This document shows positions 1 through 34,723 of a stretch of DNA of 64,000 nt, piece by piece; position 1 is the first letter of the stretch; every line of letters starts with the position of its first letter. The position numbers and the translations under genes are program-made. Origin of the DNA: Candidatus Eiseniibacteriota bacterium (GTDB lineage: Bacteria > Eisenbacteria > RBG-16-71-46); the NCBI GenBank assembly GCA_025357055.1, contig JANXPZ010000125.1, forward strand, positions 800 through 64,799, written 5' to 3'. A model generated the notes under the pieces. That model was not told the DNA's origin. It did no database searches and worked only from the letters and a program-made list of their open reading frames with translations.

Positions 1-252
1 TTCGGCGGTGAGCCGGGCATCCTGATCCGCGGCCGCAACGGTGAGTACCGCGCCCTCTCCGCCGTCTGCACCCACCTGGGCTGCACCGTCCAGCTTCGCC
101 CCGACGGGCAGTCCATCTGGTGTGCGTGCCACAACGGTCTCTACGACCTCGAGGGACGCAACGTCTCGGGGCCGCCGCCACGGCCGCTCGAGTCCTACGT
201 CGTGCACGTCATCGGCGGGGACGTCGTGGTGGAGAAGGCGAAGGGCGCATGA
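1..252 (+). CDS. Rieske [2Fe-2S] subunit of a cytochrome bc/b6f-type complex (5'-truncated at window edge)
   Basis: Frame 1 from nt 1 reads ...[10 protein letters not shown]...[10 protein letters not shown]..., the two Rieske cluster-binding boxes (CxH...CxxH); the ORF is open to the window start; stop TGA at 250-252 overlaps the next ATG (ATGA). Confidence 0.8.
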
Positions 253-1322
253 ACCTGGCCGACTGGCTGCGCGAACGGCTCGGGCTCGAGGCGCTCGATC
301 ACGTGATCGAGAAGAAGCGCGTCCCGGTCCACCGCCACACGTTCTGGTACTACTGGGGCGGGATGACCCTGTTCCTCTTCGGGGTCCAGGTCGCGACCGG
401 CATCCTGCTCGTCCTCTATTACCGGCCGAGCGCCGACGAGGCCTACGAGAGCGTGCGTTTCCTGATGACGCAGGTCTCCTTCGGGTGGCTCATCCGCTCG
501 ATCCACTCCTGGTCCGCGAATCTGCTGGTGGGCGCGGCCATGATCCACATGTTCAGCGCCTTCATGCTCAAGTCGTACCGCCGGCCGCGCGAGGTGACCT
601 GGCTCACCGGCATGGGGCTCTTCGTGCTGTGCCTGGCCTTCGGCTTCAGCGGCTACCTGCTGCCGTGGAACCAGCTGGCGTTCTTCGCCACCAAGGTGGG
701 CACGGACATCATGGGCAGCGTGCCGCTGGTCGGTCCCTTCCTCGCGCGCCTGCTGCGCGGCGGCGACCAGATCACGGGCGGAACGCTCACGCGCTTCTTC
801 GGCTTCCACGTGGCGATCCTGCCGCTGTGCATGACGGCGCTGCTGGGCATCCACCTGTTCCTGGTGCAGTGGCACGGCATGAGCGTGCCGCCCGGTGCGG
901 AACAGCCCGTGGCCGCGCCGAAGCAGGAGATGAAGTTCGTCCCCGACTTCCTGCTGCGCGACCTGGTGGGCTGGCTCGCCGCGCTGGGCGCGCTCGCGCT
1001 GCTCGCCGCGCTCTTCCCCTGGGAGCTGGGGCTCAAGGCCGACCCCTACGCGTTCGCGCCCGCCGGCATCAAGCCCGAGTGGTATTTCGGATACATGTTC
1101 CAGACCCTGCGCATGATCCCTTCGCGGGTGCTCGGGATCGAGGGCGAGCTGCTGGGCATCGTGGGCTTCGGGCTGGGGGCCCTGGTTTGGGCGCTGGTCC
1201 CCTTCCTCGATGCGCCCGACGGCCGCGGCCCGCGGGCGCGCTTCTGGCGCGTGGTCGGCGTGCTGGCGATGCTCTACGTGGTCGTGTTCACCCTGCTGGT
1301 CTATCGCGGAGGACCCTCGTGA
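249..1322 (+). CDS. Cytochrome b (b6 + subunit-IV-like regions in one ~358 aa polypeptide)
   Basis: [12 protein letters not shown]...[11 protein letters not shown]...[11 protein letters not shown]...[16 protein letters not shown]... matches the cytochrome b/b6 family; length fits fused b6+SUIV; ATGA overlap with the Rieske stop. Confidence 0.85.
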
Positions 1323-2554
1323 GAGCCCTGCGGCGGTTGCTGTTCCTGGCGGGCGCGTTGCTGCTCGCGGCCGCGCCCGCGCGCGCGGTGGTGGACTCCT
1401 GCGTCGAGTGCCACCGCGGGCTCGACGACCCGCGCCTGAAGGCCCCGACCGCTGGCTTCCCGCATGACATCCACGCCGAGCGCGGCCTCACCTGCGCCGC
1501 CTGCCACGGTGGCGATCCGGCGGATCCGGATCCCTCGGCGATGGATCCGGAGAAGGGCTTCAAGGGCGCGCCCACCCGCGCGCAGATCGCTCCGCTGTGC
1601 GCCTCGTGCCACGCCGACGCGGCCTTCATGAAGCGCTACAACCCGCGGCCCTACGTGTTCTCGATGGCCGAGTGGCAGACCAGCGTGCACGCGAAGCTCG
1701 CGGCACGCGGCGACGCCAAGGTCGCCACCTGCACGAGTTGCCACGGCGTGCACGGCATCCGCCCGCCGAAGGACCCCGCCTCGCCGGTCTTCAAGACCAA
1801 CGTGCCGCGGACCTGCGCGAAGTGCCACAACGCCGGCTACATGAAGGGCCACCCGGTCCGCACCGACCAGTTCGCGCTCTATTCGAAGAGCGTGCACGGC
1901 GTGGCGCTGCTGGAGAAGGGGGACGTCTCCGCGCCGGCCTGCAACGACTGCCACGGCAACCACGGGGCCGCGCCGCCGGGCGTGAAGGACGTGACGATGG
2001 TCTGCGGCACCTGCCACGGCCGCGAGGCCGAGTTGTTCGAGGGCAGCCGGATGAAGGCGGGGCTGGACGCGATGGGCAAGCCCGGCTGCGTGACCTGCCA
2101 CGGCAACCACGGGGTGCAGCACCCGACCGACGCCATGCTCTCCGCGGCGCCGGGCGGCACCTGCGCGGGCTGCCACCGTCCCGGCTCGGTGGCCGAGCAG
2201 GGCACGAGCGCGATCGTGGCGAGCTTCCGCGGGCTGCAGGGCTCGCTCTCGACCGCGGACAGCCTGCTCCAGCTGGCCGAGGTGCGCGGCATGGAGACCG
2301 CCCCGGGCCGCGGGAACCTGAAGGAGGCGCAGGACGCCCTGGTCGGCGTGCGCGCCGGGCTGCACAGCTTCGATCCGAAGCAGATCGGCGCCGTCCTCGC
2401 CGAGGGCGCGGGGCTCTCCCGCAAGGCGACGGGCTACGGGCGCGAGGCGTTGCGCGACTGGCACAACCGCCGCTTGGGGATGGTCCTGTCGCTGGTCGTC
2501 ATCCTGATCCTGATCGGCCTCGTGGTCGCGAAGATCCGCCAGATCGAGAATTGA
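1319..2554 (+). CDS. Membrane-anchored multiheme cytochrome c (9 CXXCH), cytochrome subunit of bc complex 1
   Basis: GTG start overlapping the cyt b stop (GTGA); N-terminal signal/anchor; 9 CXXCH motifs (CVECH, CAACH, CASCH, CTSCH, CAKCH, CNDCH, CGTCH, CVTCH, CAGCH); C-terminal hydrophobic helix [19 protein letters not shown]; paralogous to 8273..9493. Confidence 0.8.
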
Positions 2555-2572
2555 TCCCCGTGCCCCGGCGGG

Positions 2573-2596
2573 GCCGCGCGGTGGGACGCGGCCCGT
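2573..2596 (+). terminator. GC-rich hairpin downstream of the bc operon (possible intrinsic terminator without a U-tract)
   Basis: gggccgcg-cggtggga-cgcggccc inverted repeat 20 nt after the cyt c stop; there is no T-run, which is common at high GC. Confidence 0.25.
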
Positions 2597-2633
2597 CGCG
2601 AACCCTCCGGGCGCTTCCCACCATGCGCGGAGG

Positions 2634-3457
2634 ATGCCCGCCATGAACACCCGCCTCGCCCTGCTCGGCGTGATGATCGCCGCGCTCCCGCTCGCGGTGG
2701 ATCTCCCGGTCTCGCGTGATTCCTCGCGCACCGGTCCGCTGCAGGTGGAGGTCGCCGGCGGTGGCGGCCAGTTCGCCATCGTGAACCGTGGCTGCGATGG
2801 GCGGGTGCTCCAGGTCACGCGCAACCAGCTGCGTTCCGGCGCGCTCGTGGTCGAGCATCGGCTCCCGGAGGGCTTCGTCGTCGTCGTGCGTGCGGGCGCG
2901 TGCAGACGACGCTGCACCCGATCACGCAGGTCTATGTCGGCGCTCCGGGCCAGCCCTACCGCGACTCGACGCGCACCATCTGGTACTCGAATCGCTACGT
3001 GAACCCGTACGTAGGCTACGAGGGACGCCGGGTGGGCGTGGGCGTCGGCGTGATGAAGGCCGATCGTCCGTTCGATGCCGACCATTCGTGGACCGGCATC
3101 GAGGACCCCCTCCAGGGGGTGCAGGCCGCGAATTCCTTCCATGAGGTGCTCCCCACCGGGCACGTGCGCCTGAGTGGCGAGCGGCACCGCCTGACGCTGC
3201 GCTGGATGGAGGACGTGCCGCTGGAGTCGGAGGGCCACTTCAGCGCGGACCTGGGGTTCCGGTCGAGCCGTCAACTCGAAACCGGCGTGTTCGTGGGTCT
3301 CGCCGGGCCCTACGATGGCGTCATGTTCGGGCTGCGCGGGCGCGTCTGGTTCACGCCGGCGGCCGCGTTGCAGATCAAGGCCTCCGTGTCGAGTGGGGAA
3401 GGCGGGGAGTACGGCGTCTACGGCAGCGTCATCGCGAGGTTGCCGGGCGTGCACTGA
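2634..3457 (+). pseudogene. Secreted hypothetical protein, probably frameshifted (two ORFs 2634..3002 and 2900..3457)
   Basis: Frame 0 gives a signal peptide (MNTRLALLGVMIAALPLAV) and protein-like sequence up to ...FVVVVRAGA, then degenerates into an R-rich tail; frame 2 becomes protein-like from about 2900 (QTTLHPITQVYVGAPGQPYRD...); this is consistent with a -1/+2 frameshift near 2895-2900. Confidence 0.4.
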
Positions 3458-3542
3458 AGCGGCGCCCGGCGGGCGCGCGGGCCCGTGCGGAGTCGGCTCC
3501 GGCCCGCGCCCGGAGGGGGTTCGCGCCTGCGGAGAGGTCGCC

Positions 3543-4751
3543 CTACGCCGGGTGGATCGGTGCTTCTTCGGCCCGCTTCGCCGGCAGCAGCCGGACGAGC
3601 ACGAAGAGGATCAGGAAGGGCGCGAGCAGCAGCCCGAGCGCGGTGACCAGACCCTCCAGCCCGGTCATCTCCATCTTGTAGGCCATCAGCCCGCGGAAAC
3701 TCTTCGAGAAGAGCTGCCCGCCGATGACCACGTTCCAGCGCGTGCTGAAGATGCCGAGCTGGATCAGGAGCGCCGCGGTGAAGTAGAGGAGCTTCCTCAG
3801 GTCCGGGTTCACGCGCCGGGTGCGCGCCGCCACCAGCACCGCCAGCGGCACGAGCATGCCGAGCAGGACCTGGAGGATGACCAGGTTCATGAAGAGCTTC
3901 ACCGAGATGAGCTGCGCCAGGATCTTCACCGACTCCTCGCTCTGGTAGAGGCGGTGGATGAAGTCGAGCGCCTCGAGCGAGAAGTCCACGACCACGGCGT
4001 AGAACAGGTACGAGGCCACCTTGTCCAGGCACTTCATGTCCAGCGGTTCGTTCCGCAGGGAGGTGATCACCATGTAGAGGAACAGCACCAGCGCGATGCC
4101 GGAGACGATGGCCGACATCAGGAACACGATGGGCATGAGCACGCTGCTCCACCAGGGATTGGCCTTGATGGAGCCGAAGATGAAGCCCACGTAGCCGTGG
4201 AGCAGGAAGGCCGACGGGATGCCCACGATGGTGATCGTCCGGACCGCCTTCCGGTCGAAGGCGACCGCCTGCTCGCTGATGTCGTTCGAGAACAGGGAGA
4301 GCGCGCGGTAGACCCAGCGGAGCGGGGGCTTGTGCTCGCGGCCCCACACCACCAGGTCGCGCCGGTACTCGAACCAGATCTCGAGCAGCAGGATGCCCAT
4401 CAGGTACCAGGCGTAGACGAACCCGAACATGGCCATCGCCGAGGAGAGGTGCGGCGCCAGGAAGATCTCGAACGAGCGCTCCATGTGCCCGAGGTGCAGG
4501 AGCAGCGGGAAGGGCGCCACGAGCAGGAAGGACAGCGCGGTCAGGAGGGCGAGCCGGTAGGTGGGCTGGACCTCCTTCACGTTGAAGACCTTGACCAGCG
4601 AGGCCAGGATGAACGCGCCGGCCACGAGCCCGGTGAGATACGGGTAGACCACGATCAGGATCGACCAGTGGATCTCGATCTCGTTCGGGTAGATGTACCC
4701 GATGACCTGCCCGAGCAGCTCCGTCAGGTTGGGCGGCACCTGGGCGATCAT
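3543..4751 (-). CDS. NrfD/PsrC-family polytopic membrane quinol-interacting subunit
   Basis: 402 aa with 8-10 predicted TM helices; NrfD/PsrC-like sequence (…HLGHMERSFEIFLAPHLSSAMAMFGFVYAWYLMG…); GGAG RBS before the ATG; ATGA overlap with the upstream FeS gene. Confidence 0.8.
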   Translation of the reverse strand: MIAQVPPNLTELLGQVIGYIYPNEIEIHWSILIVVYPYLTGLVAGAFILASLVKVFNVKEVQPTYRLALLTALSFLLVAPFPLLLHLGHMERSFEIFLAPHLSSAMAMFGFVYAWYLMGILLLEIWFEYRRDLVVWGREHKPPLRWVYRALSLFSNDISEQAVAFDRKAVRTITIVGIPSAFLLHGYVGFIFGSIKANPWWSSVLMPIVFLMSAIVSGIALVLFLYMVITSLRNEPLDMKCLDKVASYLFYAVVVDFSLEALDFIHRLYQSEESVKILAQLISVKLFMNLVILQVLLGMLVPLAVLVAARTRRVNPDLRKLLYFTAALLIQLGIFSTRWNVVIGGQLFSKSFRGLMAYKMEMTGLEGLVTALGLLLAPFLILFVLVRLLPAKRAEEAPIHPA

Positions 4752-5523
4752 CGCACCTCTCCGTCGAGCTGGGCGTAGTAGACCTTGGGCTCGGTGTTGA
4801 GCGCGGGCTTCAGCACGTTGATCTTGTTCATGCGCTGGAAGCGCACGAGGCGGCTCGCCTTGCTCCGGAGGTCACCGAAGACGCGCGCCTGGGTCGGGCA
4901 CACCTCGACGCACGCCGGCAGCAGCCCCTTGACCACGCGGTGGTAGCAGAAGGTGCACTTGTCCGCGGTGTTGGTGCGGTGATTGAAGAAGCGTGCCCCG
5001 TAGGGACAGGCCTGGATGCAGTAGCGGCAGCCGATGCAGCGCGTGCTGTCCACCAGCACCACGCCGTCCGCGGTCGTGAAGGTGGCGCCGACCGGGCAGA
5101 CCTGCACGCAGGGCGCGTGCGCGCAGTGGTTGCAGAGCTTCGGCACGAAGAAGGAGCGCAGCACCTCGCGCTCATCCTGCGCCTTCCGCTCCCCGCGCGG
5201 ATTCACGCTGATGCACTCGACCTCGGTCTCGCCGCTCTGCTTCACGGTGTAGCGCTCGACCCAGGTGCGGAAGAAGAACGGCTCGGGGGGCACGTCGTTC
5301 TCGGCCTTGCACGCCTCCGCGCAGCGGTTGCAGCCGATGCACTTCTCGACTTCGATCCCCATCCCGTACCAGTGGTCGCGGGGCTCGTAGCCGGGAGTGG
5401 GCGAACCGGTCGCCCCGGCGGCGCCCGCGACCGACGCCTCCGCCTGGCGCATCAGGGCCTGGAGCACGGCGGCGGCCGGGATGAAGGCGATGGCCCCCTT
5501 CTTGAGGAACTCGCGCTTGTTCA
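4748..5523 (-). CDS. 4Fe-4S ferredoxin-type iron-sulfur subunit (NrfC/PsrB/HybA family), Tat-like signal
   Basis: MNKREFLKKGAIAFIPAAA... followed by four Cys clusters (CIGCNRCAEAC, CNHCAHAPCVQVCP, CIGCRYCIQACP, CTFC...CVEVCP); the track ORF 4748..6079 is actually two genes; ATGA overlaps on both sides. Confidence 0.85.
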
Positions 5524-6255
5524 TGGCCGTCCTTCCGGCAGGTGGGGGTAGTGACACTGCCAGCAGAGGTAGCCGCCGCCGTGGCTGGCGAGCTCCACCT
5601 TGGGCGCGTCCGGGTTGGCCGTGCCGCCGGCGTGGCACTGCCCGCAGAACTCGCGGGTCTGGGGCTTGCTGGGAAGCGCGCTGCGGGGCGCGATCCGGTG
5701 CTCCTTGCTCGCGGTGTGGCAGGTCGCGCAGGGCAGCAGCGCGTGCGCCGAGAGCGCCACGGTGCGGGCGATCTGCGCGTGGCAGGCCGCGCACTCCTTC
5801 GGGGTCTCCGGCGGCACCGGGTCGTGCGGGTTGTGGCAGGTGATGCAGGGCTTGAGCGGATTGTGGGATTCCGTGTTGATCTGCGGGAAGCCCGTGGGCC
5901 GTGCCGCGTCGTAGGCATGGCAGACCGGGCAGAACTTGCGGTCGCGGGGGGCGAAGGGCTTGACCGACATCGGGTCCTCCGCGTGTCCGGCGGCCGGTCC
6001 GTGGCAGGTCTCGCAGGCGAGCCCCTTGTGGTAGCCCAGGGCTTTCTTTTCCCACTCCTCCGCGTGGCAATCCTGGCACGCGGACGCGCCGGCGAAGTTG
6101 ACGGGCCGGGCGACCTCGCGCCGCACGGTGGCGGACTGGTGCACCGCGGTGGAGAAGTAGGCGCGCGGGATCAGCACGAATCGCACGAGCAGAGCCAGCG
6201 TCGCGACGAGCGCGACCACCACCGCGATGCGCGTGACCTGCTCGGGGAGCTTCAA
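5521..6255 (-). CDS. Membrane-anchored octaheme cytochrome c
   Basis: TTG start 4 nt after a GGAGG RBS; N-terminal TM helix; 8 CXXCH (CQDCH, CETCH, CPVCH, CITCH, CAACH, CATCH, CGQCH, CWQCH); stop overlaps the FeS gene start. Confidence 0.8.
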   Translation of the reverse strand: MKLPEQVTRIAVVVALVATLALLVRFVLIPRAYFSTAVHQSATVRREVARPVNFAGASACQDCHAEEWEKKALGYHKGLACETCHGPAAGHAEDPMSVKPFAPRDRKFCPVCHAYDAARPTGFPQINTESHNPLKPCITCHNPHDPVPPETPKECAACHAQIARTVALSAHALLPCATCHTASKEHRIAPRSALPSKPQTREFCGQCHAGGTANPDAPKVELASHGGGYLCWQCHYPHLPEGRP

Positions 6256-6454
6256 GGATCCTCCCGGTTCTCCAACGCCGCGGCCACGGCCAGACTCAAG
6301 TGGCGCATCCTAGCAGGGAAGCGCCCTGGGCGGGGAGCGAAAACGCCCGGTCCGGGTACTACCATCGGCTACCGGGCGGGGAGGTCGGCGTCCGCGTCCG
6401 GTGCCCGATCGGCCGCGCCCCGGCTCGCCGGCGGCGCTTCATGAATCGTCCGGG

Positions 6455-8272
6455 CTAGTCCTGGTGACACTGCGCGCAGGCGGACTTCGCCGGCCGCAAC
6501 TGCCCGGCGGCGGGGTCGTGACAGGTCTGGCACTCGAGGTCCATGTCGAGGTGGGCCTGGTGCGAGAACTCGCCGCGGAAGCTCTTCACGGTGCGCGTCT
6601 TCACGTCGGCGTGGCACGGCAGGCACGAGCCCCCGGCGGCCGCGGTCTTCCGATGATGGCAGGGCACACAGCCGGCCGGCCCGAAACGCACGACCTCTCC
6701 GCCCGCGCGTTCCTCGTGCGTCCGGTGGCAGGCGTCGCACTCGAGCTTCGCCTTGAGCAGGTGCGGACCATGGTCGAAGGCCCTGCCCTGCCAGGCCCCG
6801 CGCTGCGCCTCGACGCCGGTGTGGCACAGCATGCAGCGCCCCGAACTGGCGCCCGTGCGCCGCCACGGCAGCTCGAGCGGGGCCAGCCCCTTCGCGCGGC
6901 GGGCCTGGTTCATCAGCTCGTGGGAGCGCTCGAGCAGGGCGTAGGCGTACGTCATGTTGTGCACGGCCTTGCCCTGCGAGACCAGCAGGAAGTCGTGCCG
7001 CGCGTCCTGCCACGCCTGCGACGGCTCCAGGCCCATCGCGCCTGCGGTCGCTTCGAGCTGGCGCTGCAGCGCGGCGACACGCTGCGCGGAGGCGCTCTGC
7101 CAGGACCTGAAGATCGCCTGGTACCCGGGCCCGTGGCAGGCCATGCAGGAGACGCCGTCGGCACGCTGGATGACGGGCTCGAGCGGGCCCTTCGCGGCCT
7201 GGGTCGCGACGGCCTCCCCGTTGTGACAGCCCTGGCAGGTGACGCCGACCGCGGCCATCGGTCCGGGCTGGTCGGGCACGCCGCGCCCGCCGGTGCCGGC
7301 ATAGAGGCTCTGCTGAGCGCCGTGGCCCGCGCCGTGGCAGGGCCCGCAACTGCCCGCGTCGACGGCGCCCGCGCCGTGCGCGTCGGCGCGCGCGCCCTTC
7401 GGCGGGGCGCCGTGCGCGATCACGAGGTGGCAGTTCGTGCAGTCCACCTTGCGCTTGGAGACGTGCCAGTCGTGCAGGTAGTCCGGATCGCCGTAGCGCG
7501 CGAGCCGCTCCGGCTGGTTGTGGCAGGTGAGGCAGCGGATCTGCGGCACGTCGCCGGTCCCGCGGATCACGCCCGCGTGGCAGGCGCTGCACGAAGTGCC
7601 GAGGCGCGAGACCTCGCCATGGTCGAACGACACGCCGGCGGCGGTGGTGACGCGCCCGGGGACGGCGTGGCAGAGCCGGCAGCGGGCGGTGCCCTGATCG
7701 GGCGCCTCGCCCTTGAAGTGGCACAACGCGCAGGTCGTGGGGGTCACGGCGATGTGCGAGCCGACCATGACCTGCGAGTGGCACGAGGTGCAGCGCAGCC
7801 GGAAGCCCTTGCGGCTCTCGGTGAGGTGCGGGGTGTGGTCGAAGACCACGCCCTGGAAGTCGACCTTTCCCTCCAGCAGCCGGCGCTCGTGGCAGCGCAG
7901 GCAGTTGGCGTCGTCCACTTCGGCCCAGGGCTTGGTGCCGTAGGTGGCGGTGAAGTACTTCACGACCATCGAGAGCGCCTCGTACTTCTTGCGCAGTTCG
8001 GCGCCGATCCCCGGCGAGATGTGGCACTCCACGCAGGCGATGCGGTTGTGCTTCGACGTCTTCCAGGAGGCGTAGTACGGCTTCATCAGGTGGCAGGTCC
8101 CGCAGAACTGCGGCGTCGAGGTGCCGAGCATCGCGATCAGGGTGAGCACGACGAACAGTCCCAGAGCGAGCCCGGCGGCCAGCGTGAGGCCGCGCAGGCT
8201 GCGCCATCCGCCGCGGCCGCCCGGCCAGCGGCCGCGGGGCGGGGCGGGACCCGGCCCCGGGACGCCGGACAC
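6455..8272 (-). CDS. 18-heme c-type cytochrome, NapC/NirT/NrfH-family N-terminus fused to a large multiheme extension
   Basis: GTG start abutting the stop of 8273..9493 with 0 nt spacer; TM helix then ...STPQFCGTCHLMKPYYASWKTSKHN...CVECH (NapC/NrfH signature); 18 CXXCH in total. Confidence 0.75.
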   Translation of the reverse strand: MSGVPGPGPAPPRGRWPGGRGGWRSLRGLTLAAGLALGLFVVLTLIAMLGTSTPQFCGTCHLMKPYYASWKTSKHNRIACVECHISPGIGAELRKKYEALSMVVKYFTATYGTKPWAEVDDANCLRCHERRLLEGKVDFQGVVFDHTPHLTESRKGFRLRCTSCHSQVMVGSHIAVTPTTCALCHFKGEAPDQGTARCRLCHAVPGRVTTAAGVSFDHGEVSRLGTSCSACHAGVIRGTGDVPQIRCLTCHNQPERLARYGDPDYLHDWHVSKRKVDCTNCHLVIAHGAPPKGARADAHGAGAVDAGSCGPCHGAGHGAQQSLYAGTGGRGVPDQPGPMAAVGVTCQGCHNGEAVATQAAKGPLEPVIQRADGVSCMACHGPGYQAIFRSWQSASAQRVAALQRQLEATAGAMGLEPSQAWQDARHDFLLVSQGKAVHNMTYAYALLERSHELMNQARRAKGLAPLELPWRRTGASSGRCMLCHTGVEAQRGAWQGRAFDHGPHLLKAKLECDACHRTHEERAGGEVVRFGPAGCVPCHHRKTAAAGGSCLPCHADVKTRTVKSFRGEFSHQAHLDMDLECQTCHDPAAGQLRPAKSACAQCHQD

Positions 8273-9493
8273 CTAGCGGTTCCTCGCGGCCTGGTCGCGG
8301 AAGCGCTTGAGCACGAACAGCGTCAGCAGCACGTAGAACCAGAACGCGATGAGCACGTAGCGGTGCTGGCGCAGGTTCGCGAACTTGCCCTCGAGCTCCT
8401 TCTGCACCTCCTCACCCACCGCGCGGGCGCGGGTGGTGAAGCCGGCCACGACCTCCGGTTGCACGGAGTGCGCGGCGGGCAGCGCTTCACGCAGGTAGGT
8501 GTGCGCCTCCTCGATGCGGGCGTGATAGTCCTCGGTCTGGATCGGGATGGCGTCGGCCTTCGCGACCAGGGCCGCGGCCTTGTCCACCTCGGCCGCGGCG
8601 GTGCGGTATTCGGTCCAGAGCCTGCGGCCCAGGTCGAGCCGCCGCGCGTCGCCGGCGTGGCAGACGGCGCACGACGAGGCGAGACGCTCGGGCCGGGCCG
8701 CCTGCACACCGTGGGCCTCGTGGCAGGACGCGCACTCGGGGCGCCTGCCGCCGCGTGCCACGGCGTGGCCGCCCGAGGTGTAGTAGCGCCGTTCGGCGGT
8801 GTGGCACTGGCCGCACACCTTGTCGACGTCGCCGACGTTGGGCGGATTGGCGCCGTGCACGCCGTGGCAGGACACGCAGGTTGGCGCGCGCAGGTTGCCC
8901 TGCTCGAAGAGCGCCCGCGCGTGGACGCTCGACTGGTACTTCTTCAGCACGTCCTGGTGCTCGCGCGCCCCTGGCATGGCCCGGCTGCCGTGGCAGCGCC
9001 CGCAGGTCTGCGGGATGTTGAGCTGGTTGACGCTGCTCGCCGGGTCGTGGGGCGCGAGGATCTCGTGCGCGCCGTGGCAGTCCGAGCAGACGGCGACCTG
9101 GCGGTCGCCCCGGGCGAGGCGCTGGCCGTGACCCGACGTCTGGTAGAGCGCGTACTGGTCCACGGGCAGGTTGTAGGGGCGCATGCGCCCCTCGTCGGAG
9201 TGGCAGGTGGCGCAAAGTGCCGGGATGTCCTGGCGCGCGGGACGGCCCCGGAAGCCGGCGCCGTGCGCGGCCCCCGCGTCGAGGCTGCGGTCGTTGCCGC
9301 CGTGGCACGAGACGCAACGCACGCCTTCGGGTGCGTGACGGCTCTTCTCGAACTGGACGCGCTCGGCCGGGTGGCAGACGCCGCAGCGGCCCGAGGACGC
9401 GGTGATCGCCGCCGGTCCCGCCGGCGGGACGGTCTGGGCGTGGGCGGTCAGGGTCGCGACCGCGAGGAGCAGGAACACGAGCGGGGTCTTCAT
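8273..9493 (-). CDS. Membrane-anchored multiheme cytochrome c (9 CXXCH), cytochrome subunit of bc complex 2
   Basis: GGAGG RBS 7 nt upstream of the ATG; signal peptide MKTPLVFLLLAVATLTAHA; 9 CXXCH; C-terminal TM helix; clear paralogy to 1319..2554 (e.g. CATCHSDEGRMRPYN.../[15 protein letters not shown]...). Confidence 0.85.
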   Translation of the reverse strand: MKTPLVFLLLAVATLTAHAQTVPPAGPAAITASSGRCGVCHPAERVQFEKSRHAPEGVRCVSCHGGNDRSLDAGAAHGAGFRGRPARQDIPALCATCHSDEGRMRPYNLPVDQYALYQTSGHGQRLARGDRQVAVCSDCHGAHEILAPHDPASSVNQLNIPQTCGRCHGSRAMPGAREHQDVLKKYQSSVHARALFEQGNLRAPTCVSCHGVHGANPPNVGDVDKVCGQCHTAERRYYTSGGHAVARGGRRPECASCHEAHGVQAARPERLASSCAVCHAGDARRLDLGRRLWTEYRTAAAEVDKAAALVAKADAIPIQTEDYHARIEEAHTYLREALPAAHSVQPEVVAGFTTRARAVGEEVQKELEGKFANLRQHRYVLIAFWFYVLLTLFVLKRFRDQAARNR

Positions 9494-9497
9494 CGCC

Positions 9498-10628
9498 CTA
9501 CCTCCGCTCGAGCAGCGCGCCGAGCACGCTGAGCACGAGCCACACCAGGAGCACCGCGGCGCCCGCCAGCCGGATGCGCAGCCTGCGCCCGGGGGTCTCG
9601 TCGCGGCGCAGCCACAGCGGCAGGAGCAGCACCGCGAACGCGGCGGCCAGCATCACGAACCCGCTCAGCCAGGGCAGGGGCAGGCGCTGGAGCAGGACGT
9701 AGGGCGCCAGCATGTACCACGGGGGCCGCACCCCGCCGGGGGTGACGTACGGGTCGGCCGCCCCGTGGAAGCGCAGCGGCAGCAGCGTGGCCAGCGTCAC
9801 GAGGATCGCGAACAACCCGACCGTGAGCATGGTCATCGAGTAGAGATGTTCGCGATAGCGGATGGGCCTTTCGTCGCGGGCCGGTCCGGTCTGGCTCAGG
9901 CCGACGCGGCGCAGCGTGGCGAAGGTGAGGTAGAGGAAGGCGGCGTAGAACGCCGGCAGCACCATGACGTGCAGCACGTAGAAGCGGATCAGCACGTCCG
10001 CGTTCACGGTCCGTCCGCCCAGCAGGAACGCCAGGATGGGCCCGGCGATGGGGATCGCCCACACCACCTCGAGCCCGCGCACCGTGCTCCAGTAGGTGTG
10101 GGAGTCCCAGGTGAGGAGCCGTCCGGTGAAGTCCGACTGGATGACCACCCAGGTCATGGCCACCGCGCACCACCACAGCACCTCGCGCGGCGCGCGGTAC
10201 AGGCCCTCCCAGAACAGCCGCAGCAGGCGCAGCACGATGACCGCCACCAGCAGCCACGAGCCCCAGGCGTGCACCTGGTGGATGAACCAGCCGCCCGGCA
10301 GGTCGCGCACGATGGTGCGCGTGCTCTCGAAGGCGGCCTCGGGCGTGGGCCGGTAGTAGTAGGCGAGCAGCACGCCCGTCACGATCTGCAGGCCGAACAG
10401 GATGGCCGCCAGCAGGCCCAGCACGCGGGCGCCGTGCGCGTAGCGCGGCACCGGTTCGGCGGCCACCTCGCGCAGCACCTCGCGCACCGGCTTCTGCGTG
10501 TCCACCGGCGTATAGACCAGGCCGAAGTGGGTGATGAAGGAGAAGATCTCGCTCAGGTTCACGCGCTGCTCAAGCCAGTCCACCCAGCCCCCGCGCGCGG
10601 GCGGGCCCTGCCTGCCGGGCGCGTTCAT
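9498..10628 (-). CDS. Cytochrome b (b6 + subunit-IV-like), bc complex 2
   Basis: MNAPGRQGPP... then the cytochrome b family (…LLAYYYRPTPEAAFEST…GRLLTWDSHTYWSTV…); ATGA overlap with the Rieske stop; the track ORF's N-terminal extension is rejected. Confidence 0.85.
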   Translation of the reverse strand: MNAPGRQGPPARGGWVDWLEQRVNLSEIFSFITHFGLVYTPVDTQKPVREVLREVAAEPVPRYAHGARVLGLLAAILFGLQIVTGVLLAYYYRPTPEAAFESTRTIVRDLPGGWFIHQVHAWGSWLLVAVIVLRLLRLFWEGLYRAPREVLWWCAVAMTWVVIQSDFTGRLLTWDSHTYWSTVRGLEVVWAIPIAGPILAFLLGGRTVNADVLIRFYVLHVMVLPAFYAAFLYLTFATLRRVGLSQTGPARDERPIRYREHLYSMTMLTVGLFAILVTLATLLPLRFHGAADPYVTPGGVRPPWYMLAPYVLLQRLPLPWLSGFVMLAAAFAVLLLPLWLRRDETPGRRLRIRLAGAAVLLVWLVLSVLGALLERR

Positions 10629-11089
10629 ACCTGGACGAAGATCTCGCCGGCGCGGACCGACACCGGGTAGCTGGGGAGCGGCCGGGGCGGCGGGCCGGAG
10701 AGCACGTTGCCCGAGAGGTCGAAGCGCCCGTCGTGGCAGGGGCAGACCAGCGTCCTGCGGGCCGGTTCGTAGCCCAGGATGCAGCGCACGTGCGTGCACA
10801 CCGCCGAGAGGGCCAGAACGCGCGTGGCGTCGAGCCGGACCACGTAGAAGGGCGTCACCCCGTGACGGACGAGGCGACCTTCGCCCACGCGGTAGTCGGC
10901 CAGGAGTCCGGCGCTCACGGTGCGCTCGGCCTCGCGCTTCTCGGGCGCCTTGAGATAGGCGCCCACCACGGCGGCGGCGCCGAGCCCCCAGAGCGCGAGG
11001 AAGGTCTGCGAGAGCACGGTGAGGAAACGGCGCCGGTCCGCAGGGCCGGACGCCGGCAGGTGGATCGGACGGTCTTCAGGGATCGGCAT
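10625..11089 (-). CDS. Rieske [2Fe-2S] protein with Tat signal, bc complex 2
   Basis: MPIPEDRPIHLPASGPADRRRFLTVLSQ (twin-arginine), CTHVRC...CPCHDG Rieske boxes; 154 aa. Confidence 0.85.
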   Translation of the reverse strand: MPIPEDRPIHLPASGPADRRRFLTVLSQTFLALWGLGAAAVVGAYLKAPEKREAERTVSAGLLADYRVGEGRLVRHGVTPFYVVRLDATRVLALSAVCTHVRCILGYEPARRTLVCPCHDGRFDLSGNVLSGPPPRPLPSYPVSVRAGEIFVQV

Positions 11090-11322
11090 GGGATCTCCGA
11101 CGGGGTCGGGGACGCAGGACGCGCGGGCGGGTCGCCGTGCCCACTGGCCTGCGGCCGGCCAGTGCCCCGCGCGTGGCAGTAAGTCCAAGCCGCATCATAG
11201 CCCGTGAACCGCGCCCGGCCAATGCGACTCGAGGCCCATACCCGGTCCACCCGGAGCCCCCGGTCCACCGCCCGCCGGTTTCGCTCGACCTGCCGTCGCA
11301 TTTGCGCTATGAAGTCCATCCC

Positions 11323-12648
11323 ATGATGACCCGTGCCCGGTTGGTCGCGCTGGCCGCGTTGCTCGCGGTCTTCCTGCTGCCCGGACGCGCCTTCGCCGCG
11401 AGCGGCGGCCCGGACCTGGCGCCCCTGCTGCTCGCGCTGGTGGTGGTGCTCCTCGGCGCCCGGCTGGGCAGCGCGCTGGCGGAGCGGTTCGGCCAGCCTC
11501 CCGTCCTGGGCGAGCTGCTCGCGGGGATCGTCATCGGCAACCTCGGCCTGCTCGGCTGGCACGGGCTCGCCGGGATGCGCGACCTCGCGGGGCTCGAGCT
11601 GCTGGCGCAGATCGGCGTGCTCTTCCTGCTCTTCGAAGTGGGGCTCGCCTCGGAGGTCGGGCAGATGCTCGCCGTGGGCCGCTCGGCGCTGCTGGTGGCG
11701 ACGCTGGGCGTGATCGCCCCCATCGGTCTCGGCTTCCTGGTGTCGCGCGGGTTCTTCCCCGGGCACCACCCCCTGACCCACTGGTTCGTCGGCGCCACGC
11801 TGTGCGCCACCAGCGTGGGCATCACCGCGCGGGTGCTCGCCGACCTGGGGCGCACGAAGAGCCGCGAGGGCCGCATCATCCTCGGGGCGGCGGTCATCGA
11901 CGACGTGCAGGGGCTGCTGGTGCTGGCGGTGATCAAGGGCATCATCGATTCGGTCGATCGCGGACAGGTCTTCAACGCCGGCTCGGTGCTGCTCATCGTG
12001 GCGAAGGCGGTCGCCTTCCTGGTGGTCGCGGTCGCCCTGGGGCGCTCGATCTCGAGCCGCGTCTTCCGGCTCGGCGCGCGCCTGCGCGGAGAGGGCGTGC
12101 TGCTCTCGCTGGCGCTGGCCTTCTGTTTCTCCTCCGCGTGGCTCGCGGGGCTGCTGGGCCTGGCGCCGATCGTGGGCGCCTTCGCCGCCGGGCTCGTGCT
12201 CGACGAGGTCCACTACCGCGATCTGCGGGCTCGGGACCGGGCCCAGCGCGACGTGCAGACGCTGCTCAAGCCGATCTCCACCTTCCTCGTGCCGGTCTTC
12301 TTCGTGCTCATGGGCATGCGCGTGGACCTCTCGGTGTTCGGCCAGGCCGGCATCGTGGGCTTCACCGCCGCGCTGATCGTGGTCGCGATCGTGAGCAAGC
12401 AGGCCTGCTCGCTGGGCGTGCTGGACAAGGGGACCGACCGGCTGGCGGTGGGGCTCGGCATGATCCCGCGCGGGGAGGTGGGGCTCATCTTCGCGGGCAT
12501 CGGGAGCGGACTGATGATCGGCGCCGAGCGCGTGGTGGACCCGATGATCTTCTCGGCCGTGGTCGCCATGGTCGCCGCGACCACGCTGCTCACACCCCCG
12601 TTGCTCGCCTGGCGGCTGAAACGGCTGCCCGTCCCCGCGGACGAATGA
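11323..12648 (+). CDS. Cation:proton antiporter (CPA/Na+-H+ exchanger family)
   Basis: 441 aa, 11-13 TM helices, Na_H_Exchanger-like sequence (GELLAGIVIGNLGLLGW..., ...GMIPRGEVGLIFAGIG...). Confidence 0.8.
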   Translation: MMTRARLVALAALLAVFLLPGRAFAASGGPDLAPLLLALVVVLLGARLGSALAERFGQPPVLGELLAGIVIGNLGLLGWHGLAGMRDLAGLELLAQIGVLFLLFEVGLASEVGQMLAVGRSALLVATLGVIAPIGLGFLVSRGFFPGHHPLTHWFVGATLCATSVGITARVLADLGRTKSREGRIILGAAVIDDVQGLLVLAVIKGIIDSVDRGQVFNAGSVLLIVAKAVAFLVVAVALGRSISSRVFRLGARLRGEGVLLSLALAFCFSSAWLAGLLGLAPIVGAFAAGLVLDEVHYRDLRARDRAQRDVQTLLKPISTFLVPVFFVLMGMRVDLSVFGQAGIVGFTAALIVVAIVSKQACSLGVLDKGTDRLAVGLGMIPRGEVGLIFAGIGSGLMIGAERVVDPMIFSAVVAMVAATTLLTPPLLAWRLKRLPVPADE

Positions 12649-17495: not shown

Positions 17496-17598
17496 GCGCC
17501 GGGGCGGGTCGCGCCGCGGCGTCGCGACGGACGATGCGAACGTCGCCGGGTTCCACGGGGCAGCGGGGAGGCGCCTGCGTGTCGCAGCCGCGGTCGCG

Positions 17599-18999
17599 CT
17601 ACGAGGCCGGTCGCGCCGGGTCGGGCGGTGCGCCGAAACGGGCCACGACCCAGATCAGGAAGGTGTGGGCGAAGGCGAAGTAGGAGATGTCGAAGTCGTC
17701 CTGGACCAGGATGTAGGTCCAGCCCTGGAGCGCGACGGACCAGGCGAAGAGCGCGGCGATCACGCCGAACAGGACCCACACGATCCCGAGCCACGCCTGC
17801 AGGACCGAGCGCGCCAGCCACCCCCACGCGATCGCCACGGCGAACACGCCCGCCAGCAGCGGCGTCGGGATGTAGGAGAGCTGGATGGCGAACGGGCCGA
17901 ACTGCGCGAACCGGCGCGCGTCCCACAGGAGGAACGGCACCAGCGTCGCGACGAAGGTGGCCACGCACCAGGCCGCCACGACGGCCCCGGAGCGACGGTC
18001 GTTCCGGTAGCGCCACGGCAGGAAGACCGCGTACGCCAGCCCGACGATCCCGCGGGTGGAGAGCAGGAGCCCCGCAGCGATGCCCCGCCAGGGCGTGGTT
18101 CCGGGCCGCGCCCGTCCCTCGATCCCCGCGAGGAACAGCAGCACGAGCGTCATGTTGCTGAAGAGTTCGCTGCGCGTGACGACCTCGTAGAGGAAGAGCG
18201 GTGCGGCGAGCAGCAGTCCGAGCGCGAACCACGCGGTCTCCGGGTGCGCGCGCGCCGCGCGGCGGCAGGCCCAGGCGAAGGCCCCGAAGGCCGCGATCTG
18301 GAGGAGGCCGAGATCGCCGATCGCCTGGAAGGGCAGCGCGATCAGGAACAGCACGGGGAACGCGGACGGCAACACGGCCGAGGCGTACGGGAAGCGGCCG
18401 TGGAGCAGGTGGTCGAGCCACTCGCGGATCGCGGGGTAGCGCGTCACCCGCAGGGCCTCCGGGTCGAACCGCGTCATGACCAGCGCCAGGGCGATCGCGG
18501 CGGCGGCGGCGACGGCGGCGAAGCCCCAGCCGCTGCGGTCGCGGCGCGCGCACCCCCGCGCGAGACGCGGACCCACGAGCCAGAGCGCGGTCGCGAAGGC
18601 CACGTAGAGCGTGGCCGCGAGCAACCCGTGCCCCCCGGCGCGCTGGGGGTACTTGAAGGCGAACGGGAGGTTGACGCCGATGTAGAGCGCGGCGAGCGCG
18701 AACCGGGCGCCGTGGCCGAGACGTTCAGGCGTGGGGATGGTCGCGCTCCTCATCGGCCAGGGGGTCTGCAGACGGTCTCGGGTCGCTCTCCGCGGCGGCA
18801 TCGGCCTGCACGCCGACGCCGTCCGCGCAAAGCTCCGGCCGGGAGGCGGCGTCCGCACTCGCGACCCGGCCGCAGGGCAGACTACGGCCCGTCCGCGGTC
18901 GCTGTCCATGTCGCGCGCACGGGCCGCGGCCGGGAGGCGCGCGCCGCCGGGGCCCGATGAGCGGACGCCGGCGGCGGTACGCGTGGGAAGCAGGCTCAT
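17599..18999 (-). CDS. Polytopic integral membrane protein (possible glycosyltransferase-like/GtrC-like); start uncertain, possibly an internal ATG near 18750
   Basis: More than 10 hydrophobic helices from about residue 90 onward; the N-terminal 80 aa of the track ORF is R/P-rich and probably not translated. Confidence 0.45.
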   Translation of the reverse strand: MSLLPTRTAAGVRSSGPGGARLPAAARARDMDSDRGRAVVCPAAGSRVRTPPPGRSFARTASACRPMPPRRATRDRLQTPWPMRSATIPTPERLGHGARFALAALYIGVNLPFAFKYPQRAGGHGLLAATLYVAFATALWLVGPRLARGCARRDRSGWGFAAVAAAAAIALALVMTRFDPEALRVTRYPAIREWLDHLLHGRFPYASAVLPSAFPVLFLIALPFQAIGDLGLLQIAAFGAFAWACRRAARAHPETAWFALGLLLAAPLFLYEVVTRSELFSNMTLVLLFLAGIEGRARPGTTPWRGIAAGLLLSTRGIVGLAYAVFLPWRYRNDRRSGAVVAAWCVATFVATLVPFLLWDARRFAQFGPFAIQLSYIPTPLLAGVFAVAIAWGWLARSVLQAWLGIVWVLFGVIAALFAWSVALQGWTYILVQDDFDISYFAFAHTFLIWVVARFGAPPDPARPAS

Positions 19000-19081
19000 G
19001 GACGGCGGCCGGGAAGGGGGCTAGGCTCACCGGCTCCCGAAGCGGACTTCCTGTCCCTACGTCCCACCCCGAGGTAGGCCC

Positions 19082-30124: not shown

Positions 30125-30198
30125 GAGTGGCGGTCTGGCGACGGTGAGTGGCGGTGGGGCGACAACGAGTGCCGTGCGCGGGCGACCGTGAGTGGCGC
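30125..30198 (-). promoter_or_regulatory. Array of four imperfect direct repeats (GAGTGGCGG-like 9-mers) at 21-23 bp spacing upstream of the LytTR operon; candidate LytTR-regulator binding sites/promoter
   Basis: gagtggcgg (30125), gagtggcgg (30146), gagtgccgt (30167), gagtggcgc (30190); located 80-150 nt upstream of the 30045 start; LytTR regulators classically bind 9-bp direct repeats with about 21 bp periodicity. Confidence 0.35.
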
Positions 30199-30546
30199 AC
30201 GCGGGCGGTCCTTGCCTCCGCGTTGAAGAGCCCGCTTTGTGCCCACCTTGCGGGCGCTGACCTTCCCATGCCCACGCCCGGGCTGCTACCAGCGGATAAG
30301 CGCCGTTCGGTGGCATCATCCATCGAATGGAGTGAACTCACAGCACGGTCGCGGGTAGTAGACATCGGGTGGCAGGGTTTCGTGGCACCGCTCTTGCGGT
30401 CACGGAGCGATCCTCACGAAACGGCGATAACGCGCAGTCCCGGATCCACGACCCCCCGCATTTCGGCCGCGAGGAGTCGCAATTTGCAACCTGCAGACCC
30501 GGCCCACACCCCGAAGGATGGCAGGACCGTCGCGGTCGTCGCCGAT

Positions 30547-31401
30547 CGCGTGGTTCTGGCGTGCCTGCTGGCGCTCCCCCTCGCGATCACCCTGCGCTAC
30601 CTGCCCTACTACGCGCTGGGGGTCTCCGGCCGGGCGCGTCACACGCTGCACTCCCTGCTGGGCCCCTCCGGGCCGATCGGGATCTCCTTCGGGATCGCGG
30701 GCGCCGCGCTCTTCCTCTTCATGTGGTTCTACCCGCTGCGCAAGCGGTGGACCGCGCTCCGCCGGCTGGGGAATCCGGGCATCTGGCTCCAGGTGCACAT
30801 CCTCGCGGGCCTCGCGCTGCCGCTCGCCGTGGCCGTGCACTCGGGCTGGCGCTTCGCCGGGATCATCGGGCTCGGCTACGTCGCGATGACGCTCGTCGTC
30901 CTGAGCGGCGTCGTGGGACGCTACCTCTACAGTCACATCCCCCGCCGGCAGGACGGCGTCGAGCTTTCGCGCGAGGCGGTGGCGAACGAGCGGCGCGCCC
31001 TGCTCACGCGCATCGCCGCCGCCACGGGGCTCGATCCGACCGAGGTGGGGCGCACGCTCCACCCGGGGCCCGAGCGGGGCGCCAGCCGGGGCATCGCGGG
31101 CACCCTCGCCCGCCTGGTCATCGGCGACCTGGCCCGGCGCCGGGCGATCCGCGACCTCACCCGCCTCTGGTCGCGGCCGCGACCGGGGCACCCCGCACCC
31201 GACCCGCGCGCGCTGGCCGAGGCGGTGAGGCTCGCGCGCCGGGAGGTGGCCCTGGGGCAGCAGGTGCGGATGCTGGAGGCCACGCACCGCGTCTTCGCCT
31301 GGTGGCACGTGGCGCACCTGCCGGTGGCGATCACCGCCTTCCTGGCCATCCTCGTCCACGTCGGCGTCGCCGTGCTGGTCGGCGGCGTGATGCCGCGCTG
31401 A
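30547..31401 (+). CDS. His-rich polytopic membrane protein, candidate b-type cytochrome/ferric-reductase-like transmembrane component; start uncertain
   Basis: 5-6 TM helices with conserved His (HTLHSLLG, QVHILAGLALPLAVAVHSGW, WWHVAHLPVAITAFLAILVHVG); upstream part of the track ORF (30148-30540) looks non-coding, and GTG 30547 is one possible start. Confidence 0.45.
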   Translation, partial: RVVLACLLALPLAITLRYLPYYALGVSGRARHTLHSLLGPSGPIGISFGIAGAALFLFMWFYPLRKRWTALRRLGNPGIWLQVHILAGLALPLAVAVHSGWRFAGIIGLGYVAMTLVVLSGVVGRYLYSHIPRRQDGVELSREAVANERRALLTRIAAATGLDPTEVGRTLHPGPERGASRGIAGTLARLVIGDLARRRAIRDLTRLWSRPRPGHPAPDPRALAEAVRLARREVALGQQVRMLEATHRVFAWWHVAHLPVAITAFLAILVHVGVAVLVGGVMPR

Positions 31402-31405
31402 CGCC

Positions 31406-34683: not shown

Positions 34684-34723
34684 GGAAGGAACGCACGAGA
34701 TCCATCCAGTCGGAAGGCTGGTC

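Follow-up and report, generated by a model that had tools for sequence, protein, structure and literature searches.

Do two Rieske/cytochrome b operons that lie side by side in one bacterium encode the same kind of complex twice? The question is raised by a respiratory island at the start (positions 1 to 11,089) of a 64,000-nucleotide stretch of DNA, hereafter the window, from Candidatus Eiseniibacteriota (Ca. Eisenbacteria; contig JANXPZ010000125.1, positions 800 to 64,799). Two gene sets, A and B, each encode a Rieske protein, a cytochrome b and a c-type cytochrome with nine haems. An earlier note on this DNA took them for two complete bc-type complexes that differ only in their electron acceptor or quinone. 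That a bacterium rich in multihaem cytochromes has two diverged operons of this kind is in itself ordinary. The unusual part is set B. Judging from alignments, it belongs to a widespread, conserved family that has dropped haem bH of cytochrome b and that has an 18-haem cytochrome of the NrfH type as a partner.

The four haem-ligand histidines of cytochrome b are commonly regarded as invariant. Cytochrome b B retains the two that bind haem bL (bp), His120 and His220. Both ligands of haem bH (bn) are replaced, b6 His100 by arginine (Arg134) and b6 His202 by threonine (Thr235), as seen by BLASTP against copy A, by phmmer against spinach and Chlamydomonas b6, and in MAFFT alignments. The motif of the quinol-oxidizing (Qo) site reads PPWY. 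Measured against the four histidines of bc1/b6f complexes, set A is complete, with the ligands at b6 positions 86/100/187/202 and the Qo motif PEWY, whereas set B lacks the bH pair. The idea of two bc-type complexes that differ only in acceptor or quinone is not supported in this form, because cytochrome b B has lost both axial ligands of bH/bn. A specialization of A and B for different acceptors is plausible.

The replacement extends across the family. In cytochrome b B and its 120 closest database homologues (at least 64% identity), helix B carries the arginine in 121 of 121 sequences, and the second ligand is threonine in 119 and serine in 2. A metagenome scan with an alignment of the B clade gave 80 loci. 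All 80 have the helix-B arginine, and the helix-D position is occupied by His (38), Thr (31), Ser (5), Asn (5) or Tyr (1). A drifting helix-D residue, together with a helix-B ligand that is always replaced, is the pattern expected once the haem has been lost. Further changes are seen on the n (negative) side of the membrane. Gly121 of helix C, a glycine in 99% of canonical cytochromes b, is alanine in 52 and glycine in 26 of the 80 loci, and position 200, mostly glycine in canonical cytochromes b, is aromatic in every one of them. The alignment contains no other conserved n-side histidine in the B-family cytochromes b. The bL ligands are invariant across homologues and metagenome loci, and PPWY is present in 67 of 75 of the latter. 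In a rough neighbour-joining (NJ) tree, the 50%-identity cluster representatives nearest to cytochrome b B form one clade, always with the helix-B arginine and mostly with PPWY. From these features we infer that the n-side haem bH/bn has been lost in B, and with it the route to the Qi site.

Such replacements could mark a gene in decay. The ratio of nonsynonymous to synonymous substitution rates (dN/dS) of cytochrome b B is 0.19, measured against its counterpart in the closed Ca. Eisenbacteria chromosome OY970178.1 (locus L001); the value for cytochrome b A is 0.15. An AlphaFold2 model of cytochrome b B (pLDDT 66.8, pTM 0.63; moderate confidence, without cofactors) was compared with known structures by Foldseek, giving a template-modelling score of ~0.70 to bc1 cytochrome b and of 0.83 when normalized to b6. 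The predicted structure keeps the cytochrome b fold and says nothing on haem occupancy. The low dN/dS, the family-wide conservation, the predicted fold and the retained bL and Rieske ligands argue that B is no pseudogene; a pseudogene or relaxed selection was ruled out on the first two. Inactivating haem-ligand mutations, which the earlier note named as a refutation of its view, are formally present in B, yet they are conserved under purifying selection. The ligand loss is a conserved family trait and not decay, and B would be an enzyme of another kind, not a dead copy.

Outside the B clade, three cluster representatives (P0142, P0151 and P0262) have Phe or Tyr in place of the helix-B ligand of bH (HFHL, HFHV and HYHG in a quick alignment). 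At least two of the three also lack the helix-D ligand. Loss of haem bH may have happened several times.

Set A has all the sequence features needed for a normal Q cycle. In the rough NJ tree its cytochrome b falls in a clade of ordinary HHHH/PEWY sequences. Orthologues 55-62% identical are found in two metagenome loci (L087 and L093), where orthologues of the 9-haem protein A (41-43%) adjoin the A-type cytochrome b. The gene of Rieske A is cut by the start of the window; its fragment is 94% identical to the end of the full 143-residue L001 Rieske, which has a twin-arginine translocation (Tat) motif, KRRTFL. The closest representative of the A clade, P0177, lies on a contig too short for informative context.

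Set B behaves as a module of four genes. In the metagenome gene maps, the Rieske gene lies directly upstream of the B cytochrome b in 58 of 59 loci, and the 9-haem gene directly downstream in 51 of 51, with nine CXXCH motifs in 42 of 43. The NrfH-type cytochrome comes next in all 27 loci whose contig reaches that far. Its protein has 18 CXXCH motifs in 17 of 19 cases and starts with CXXCHxM in 17 of 19. An exact protein look-up found the same four genes in nine further loci of 33-68% G+C, including an Acidobacteriota metagenome-assembled genome (MAG). Overall, B loci range from 33 to 73% G+C and include Ca. Eisenbacteria and this Acidobacteriota MAG. Together, the two membrane-anchored cytochromes that accompany the B cytochrome b in all cases carry 27 c-type haems. 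Other quinol-oxidoreductase modules had been proposed to lie between sets A and B. This is right for a trio similar to Geobacter Cbc4 and for an NrfH-type cytochrome, but the 18-haem NrfH-type gene is the fourth gene of set B itself.

The 18-haem protein resembles NrfH, CymA and NapC/NirT in that it starts with one transmembrane (TM) helix (residues 31-49) and an NrfH-like tetrahaem domain. Its first motif, CGTCHLM, is of the CXXCHxM form typical of NrfH. The match to PF03264 (Table 1) gives membership of NapC/NirT/NrfH at the level of the domain; the NrfH family TIGR03153 is matched with 57.6 bits (cut-off 134) and the NrfH structure 2j7a_C with E=1.9e-6. In contrast to NrfH, it has 14 further haems and its gene always sits behind the Rieske/cytochrome b/9-haem trio, not with a terminal reductase. 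The 9-haem subunit has no meaningful match among solved structures, the best being NrfA (E=2e-4 over 65 residues).

The Rieske protein of set B is also distinctive. Its boxes, CTHVRC and CPCHDGRF, have lost both hydrogen-bond donor positions. Throughout the family they read CTHx(R/H)C ... CPCHxGxF, with the glycine in 67 of 68 and the phenylalanine in 67 of 68, and the cluster ligands are kept in every recovered box motif. We take the glycine and phenylalanine of Rieske B to lie at positions equivalent to bovine Ser163 and Tyr165. The hydroxyls of these two residues raise the potential of the Rieske cluster, as known from mutagenesis. Potential classes range from low, at ~150 mV, up to >260 mV (Kao & Hunte 2014, PMC4122944). 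In Rieske A (CTHLGC, CACHNGLY), the Ser position is glycine and the Tyr position is tyrosine. Because Gly and Phe occupy both hydrogen-bond positions in B, we predict that Rieske B is of the low-potential type.

The pair itself is real and old. All six Rieske, cytochrome b and 9-haem genes described in the earlier note were found by translation of open reading frames (ORFs) and by Pfam where it had placed them, with the right haem counts. The two sets face each other tail to tail; the gap is 5.7 kb between stop codons, and the 8.5 kb given before corresponds roughly to the distance from centre to centre. Pairwise identity is 44% for the Rieske proteins (77 residues), 32% for the cytochromes b and 35% for the 9-haem proteins. 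A blastn comparison of A with the reverse complement of B gave only patches of up to 143 bp at 68-74%, which rules out an assembly duplication. Separate orthologues, 40-60% identical, occur in distant organisms. The rough NJ tree, distance-based on a quick alignment and indicative only, puts A and B in deep separate clades; together with L087 and L093, each of which has its own orthologues of A and of B, it rules out a recent duplication within the lineage. The layout of the island is repeated in the closed 3.6-Mb chromosome OY970178.1, where the proteins of the island are 88-95% identical, and again at three more Eisenbacteria MAG loci (L005, L006 and L007). The low protein identity, the lack of near-identical DNA and this recurrence bear out the earlier view of an ancient pair that is no artefact.

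What could a complex such as B do? It retains the Qo half of the enzyme, namely the Rieske protein, the Qo pocket and haem bL, and the transmembrane half would be gone. Quinol would be oxidized at Qo, one electron going to the Rieske cluster and one to haem bL. The Rieske electron would pass to the 9-haem subunit. If bH is absent, the bL electron must exit on the p (positive) side or cross to the partner monomer. It may go to a nearby c-haem, for which the co-inherited NrfH-type 18-haem subunit is the favoured candidate, and both electrons would end in a periplasmic or extracellular multihaem network. Gene content, ligand loss, conservation and synteny can be read from the sequence; the direction of electron flow and the hand-over from bL to a c-haem we infer. 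B would probably work without the usual proton-pumping Q cycle. The reading that we favour, with somewhat better than even confidence, is therefore a division of labour: A would be a normal Q-cycle complex and B a Qo-only quinol:multihaem-cytochrome module that feeds a periplasmic or extracellular haem network, with the Cbc4-like module beside them. Genes tied to extracellular electron transfer speak for this reading: an MtrA-like decahaem cytochrome with an MtrB_PioB barrel in L092, CbcL-like fusions just before the B module in other loci, and a cluster with 20- and 17-haem cytochromes elsewhere in the window.

That Rieske protein, Qo pocket and bL are retained throughout a family in which bH appears to be gone suggests that a Qo site of the bifurcating kind can serve outside a Q cycle. 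B offers a natural setting for two old problems: how short circuits at Qo are prevented or allowed, and which ways are open to the bL electron. Ca. Eisenbacteria and Acidobacteriota are frequent in soils and sediments, and B also bears on how such bacteria couple the quinone pool to periplasmic and extracellular haem networks. To annotate these genes as "ubiquinol-cytochrome c reductase cytochrome b subunit" is to claim more than is known.

Several points weigh against B as a Qo-only module. The best conserved part of its cytochrome b is an extra N-terminal segment on the n side (window 10449-10583, residues ~16-60, pattern W.E.RLNLTEIFSF..FGL.Y). It has no counterpart in canonical cytochromes b and would be odd if the n side were functionless. 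About half of the wider family (38 of 80 loci) keeps the helix-D histidine, and these members may hold a singly ligated or otherwise bound n-side cofactor. The haem content of the family is deduced solely from the ligand residues, and the structural model is cofactor-free and of only moderate confidence. P0136 (L091:3824-4843), a member of the B clade with all four histidines and the Qo motif LPWF, is accompanied by Rieske, 9-haem and NrfH-type 18-haem genes in the usual order. Perhaps it stands for the condition that preceded the loss of the haem. The NrfH-type partner would then predate the loss and need not be a functional replacement. In addition, the NrfH-type domain may be an independent quinol dehydrogenase with a quinol site of its own.

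The two electron outputs of B might differ in potential. B would then be a quinol-based electron bifurcase with both outputs in the periplasm, a high-potential one through the Rieske protein and the 9-haem subunit and a low-potential one from bL to the NrfH-type 18-haem wire. This would allow electrons to reach acceptors more negative than the quinone pool, for instance Fe(III) minerals that are hard to reduce. In the opposite direction, quinone could be reduced jointly by two periplasmic donors that differ in potential. We regard the bifurcase as unlikely.

An equally small chance is given to a B complex that takes up electrons and reduces quinone, the reverse of the favoured direction. A donor outside the cell or in the periplasm, such as Fe(II), would supply electrons that converge on quinone at Qo through the multihaem subunits, one via the Rieske protein and one via haem bL, and bH would not be needed. 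One bc1 complex of Acidithiobacillus ferrooxidans runs uphill during Fe(II) oxidation. The PPWY motif is otherwise known from the bc1 complexes of this organism, but there it is taken as an acid adaptation (Kao & Hunte 2014, PMC4122944). Moreover, A. ferrooxidans bc1 has both b haems and draws on the proton-motive force through them, and without bH there is no obvious energy source for the uphill step. A Rieske B of low-potential type, with Gly and Phe at both hydrogen-bond positions, would suit electron uptake. So would the conduits of MtrAB/PioAB type, in which either direction is possible and which adjoin B modules in L092 and probably in L087. A few kb away from the B module of L092, an MtrA-like decahaem cytochrome is followed by a PF11854 MtrB_PioB barrel (17578-20767). 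In L087 (3978-7111), a 10-haem MtrA-like cytochrome and a 692-residue barrel-like protein, without a Pfam match, lie near it. These neighbours link the B family to outer-membrane electron conduits; the sequence itself gives no direction.

A further proposal joins the two sets in one complex. In a heterodimer of cytochromes b A and B, the electron of B would pass from its bL to the bL of A and on to bH and the Qi site of A, giving one complex with two Qo sites and output arms. The two modules adjoin in four different arrangements: convergent (window, L001, L005, L006, L007 and L166), divergent (L123, L131 and L162), tandem with B before A (L087, L098 and L157) and tandem with A before B (L093 and L128). 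This recurrent neighbourhood suggests a functional link. Catalytically relevant transfer from bL to bL between monomers is reported for engineered bc1 (PMC4330944). However, an A-type module is present in only 8 of the 80 metagenome B loci and in 3 of the 22 that have at least 5 kb of spare flank, which weakens any obligatory pairing. The B modules of L088, L091, L092 and L004 have no A module within 10 kb, A and B do not share a Rieske protein or a 9-haem subunit, and conservation of a dimer interface is uncertain at 32% identity. We consider the heterodimer quite improbable.

Still less weight is given to a B cytochrome b that binds a second n-side haem, or another cofactor, by unconventional ligation and runs a modified Q cycle. 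The helix-D histidines of the wider family, the conserved extra segment and the retained n-side Gly37 of helix A are in its favour. A parallel is cyanobacterial subfamily K, whose short proteins carry Glu or Gln instead of the helix-2 histidine and whose haem number is called "obscure" (Dibrova 2017, PMC5600118). In the subclade of the window, however, both ligands are gone in all 121 sequences, arginine is no haem ligand, Gly121 is replaced and position 200 is a bulky aromatic residue. The conservation data refute a last view, in which B would be a second copy that has lost its function and is decaying, or the inverted arrangement an artefact of assembly, even with two of the four canonical ligands mutated: more than 200 homologues share the substitutions, dN/dS is near that of set A, the partner genes are all intact and syntenic, the layout recurs in a closed chromosome, and near-identical DNA repeats are absent.

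The favoured Qo-only reading of B has to be set against known systems. Both sets resemble bc1 and b6f complexes. Their Rieske proteins are Tat-exported and show the CxH...CxCH boxes and the disulfide cysteines. Both sets also have a cytochrome b fold with a b6-like N-terminal half, b6-type ligand spacing and a C-terminal half like subunit IV, a PxWY Qo motif, and a c-type cytochrome gene after that of cytochrome b. Both cytochromes b have ~7 TM helices and, compared with solved b6f complexes, match b6 over residues ~43-245 and subunit IV over ~259-364, in line with the fusion proposed in the earlier note. Its placing of a membrane-anchored 9-haem protein in the position of c1 or f likewise holds for each set: the protein has an N-terminal signal and a single C-terminal TM helix. 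In this subunit and in the lack of a haem ci cysteine, both sets differ from bc1 and b6f. Set B, which has PPWY and neither bH/bn ligand, would in addition lack the two-haem chain across the membrane that defines these complexes. They are not of the b6f type proper, as both cytochromes b are single fused ORFs, the cysteine of CxGG is missing (YWGG in A, VLGL in B) and the NCBIfam b6 family is matched below its cut-off. It is the best match of cytochrome b A, with 224 bits (cut-off 325).

Several Rieske/cytochrome b complexes in one organism, and complexes of this kind with multihaem subunits, are established. Geobacter Cbc6/Ext (GSU2930-2937), Methanoperedens and the anammox clusters R/b-2 and R/b-3 combine a Rieske protein and a b6-like cytochrome b with multihaem cytochromes, and have been proposed as quinol:periplasmic cytochrome oxidoreductases (Butler 2010, PMC2825233; Arshad 2015, PMC4683180; Hauser 2025, PMC12954380). 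They differ in haem counts and partners (2/10/12/5-haem cytochromes, pentahaems, an NAD(P)-binding subunit). No report of a lost haem bH ligand was found in the texts consulted on these clusters. ExtP is the best NCBIfam match of cytochrome b B (148 bits) and the second of A (204 bits). Both scores lie below the cut-off of 290, so neither protein is orthologous to ExtP, and membership of Ext/Cbc6 was rejected.

Precedents for the loss of a bH ligand are few. Pyrobaculum cytochrome b has lost the fourth histidine, which was taken as haem loss (Kao & Hunte 2014, PMC4122944). The Pyrobaculum proteins and cyanobacterial subfamily K have each lost one ligand and belong to unrelated clades, and no operon with Rieske, 9-haem and NrfH-type 18-haem genes has been described for them. 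They were the only precedents found in the open-access literature for a bH-less Rieske/cytochrome b family with an NrfH-type partner, and in the same literature neither the four-gene B family nor its occurrence together with an A-type complex was found to be described. The survey of Kao & Hunte (2014, PMC4122944) removed sequences lacking haem-ligand histidines, six from Pyrobaculum being kept deliberately; a family like B would have been filtered out.

The gene map (Table 1) was built from the ORF listing and translation, and Pfam supports all gene assignments. The G+C content of the window is 72%. Both 9-haem proteins match multihaem Pfam families, and no protein of the island attains an NCBIfam equivalog cut-off.

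Table 1. Features of the respiratory island, with positions in the window.
Feature	Position	Strand	Properties
Rieske A, 2Fe-2S	1..252	+	C-terminal 83 residues only, gene cut by window start; PF00355 46.5 bits
Cytochrome b A	249..1322	+	357-residue b6+subunit IV fusion; PF00033 165 bits, PF00032
9-haem c-type cytochrome A	1319..2554	+	9 CXXCH; signal peptide; C-terminal TM anchor, residues 386-404
NrfD-family integral membrane subunit	3543..4751	-	~9-10 TM helices; PF03916 124.7 bits
Periplasmic four-cluster 4Fe-4S protein, NrfC/DsrO/TtrB type	4748..5524	-	PF13247 98 bits
8-haem c-type cytochrome	5521..6255	-	8 CXXCH; one N-terminal TM helix, residues 10-28
18-haem cytochrome, NapC/NirT/NrfH-type N-terminal domain	6455..8272	-	18 CXXCH; PF03264 53 bits (cut-off 24)
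9-haem c-type cytochrome B	8273..9493	-	9 CXXCH; signal peptide; C-terminal TM anchor, residues 380-398
Cytochrome b B	9498..10628	-	376-residue b6+subunit IV fusion; Pfam Cytochrome_B and Cytochrom_B_C
Rieske B, 2Fe-2S	10625..11089	-	PF00355 48 bits; Tat motif RRRFL
Weak sigma-70-like promoter match upstream of Rieske B	11194..11222	-	9 of 12 positions

The genes of the 8-haem cytochrome, the iron-sulfur (FeS) protein and the NrfD subunit are consecutive, with 4-bp overlaps. This trio (6255-3543) shares its three-part layout with Geobacter Cbc4 (CbcS/CbcT/CbcU; bioRxiv 10.1101/2025.04.14.648717) and with NrfBCD/DsrJOP. It differs in its cytochrome, which has 8 haems instead of 3-5, and no family cut-off is reached. 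The FeS protein (258 residues) has a signal-like N-terminal start, MNKREFLKKG, and matches the NCBIfam families DsrO (188 bits, cut-off 200) and TtrB (219 bits, cut-off 416). An alternative complex III would be expected to have an ActB with molybdopterin-like and FeS domains, two NrfD-like proteins, a pentahaem ActA and a monohaem ActE. This candidate was rejected, as the FeS protein has ferredoxin domains only and no molybdopterin domain, there is a single NrfD gene and the cytochrome has 8 haems. The sole resemblance is a weak match (E=0.0068) to the multihaem chain of PDB 6lod, the ActA of an alternative complex III.

NrfD orthologues 77-95% identical stand at the same position in L001, L005 and L006. 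Not all Eisenbacteria have the trio next to set B: it is there in L001, L005, L006, L149, L138 and L154 and absent in L004 and L007. None was seen beside any B module from outside the Eisenbacteria. Another neighbour of B modules is a CbcL-like gene, in which a multihaem c domain is fused to a Ni_hydr_CYTB dihaem b domain. Of the 30 loci with enough upstream sequence, 11 have such a gene immediately before the B module, on its upstream side. When shorter contigs are included, CbcL-like matches are found just upstream of Rieske B in L095-L100, L105, L106, L110, L127, L128, L130, L133, L134, L137, L150, L152, L158 and L160; the window has none.

The sigma-70-like site upstream of Rieske B is the sole match in positions 1-11600, where 0.4 would be expected by chance, and its role as the promoter of Rieske B is suggestive only. 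The same scan gave no convincing terminators. A Na+/H+ exchanger gene (PF00999; 11320-12648, plus strand) is divergent from Rieske B and is kept at that position in L001, L003 and L006 (67-89% identity).

The stop codons of the 9-haem A and NrfD genes are separated by ~1 kb (2555-3542); L001 has 85 bp there. This region contains an ORF with a signal peptide (2644-3002) and, overlapping it in another frame, an ORF of 185 residues (2900-3457; G+C at third codon positions 0.89) with no Pfam or NCBIfam match. The two may be parts of a single small outer-membrane-like gene, split by a frameshift near 2895.

A second multihaem cluster is found further along the window (30148-37875, plus strand). It starts with a TM protein without a Pfam match (30148-31401) and an FeS plus FAD/NAD oxidoreductase (31406-32893). 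These are followed by cytochromes with 20 (~32890-34683) and 17 (~34727-36166) CXXCH motifs, and by a 561-residue protein without a Pfam match that ends in ...FGLSWRF (~36190-37875). The cluster looks like a conduit of the porin-cytochrome type.

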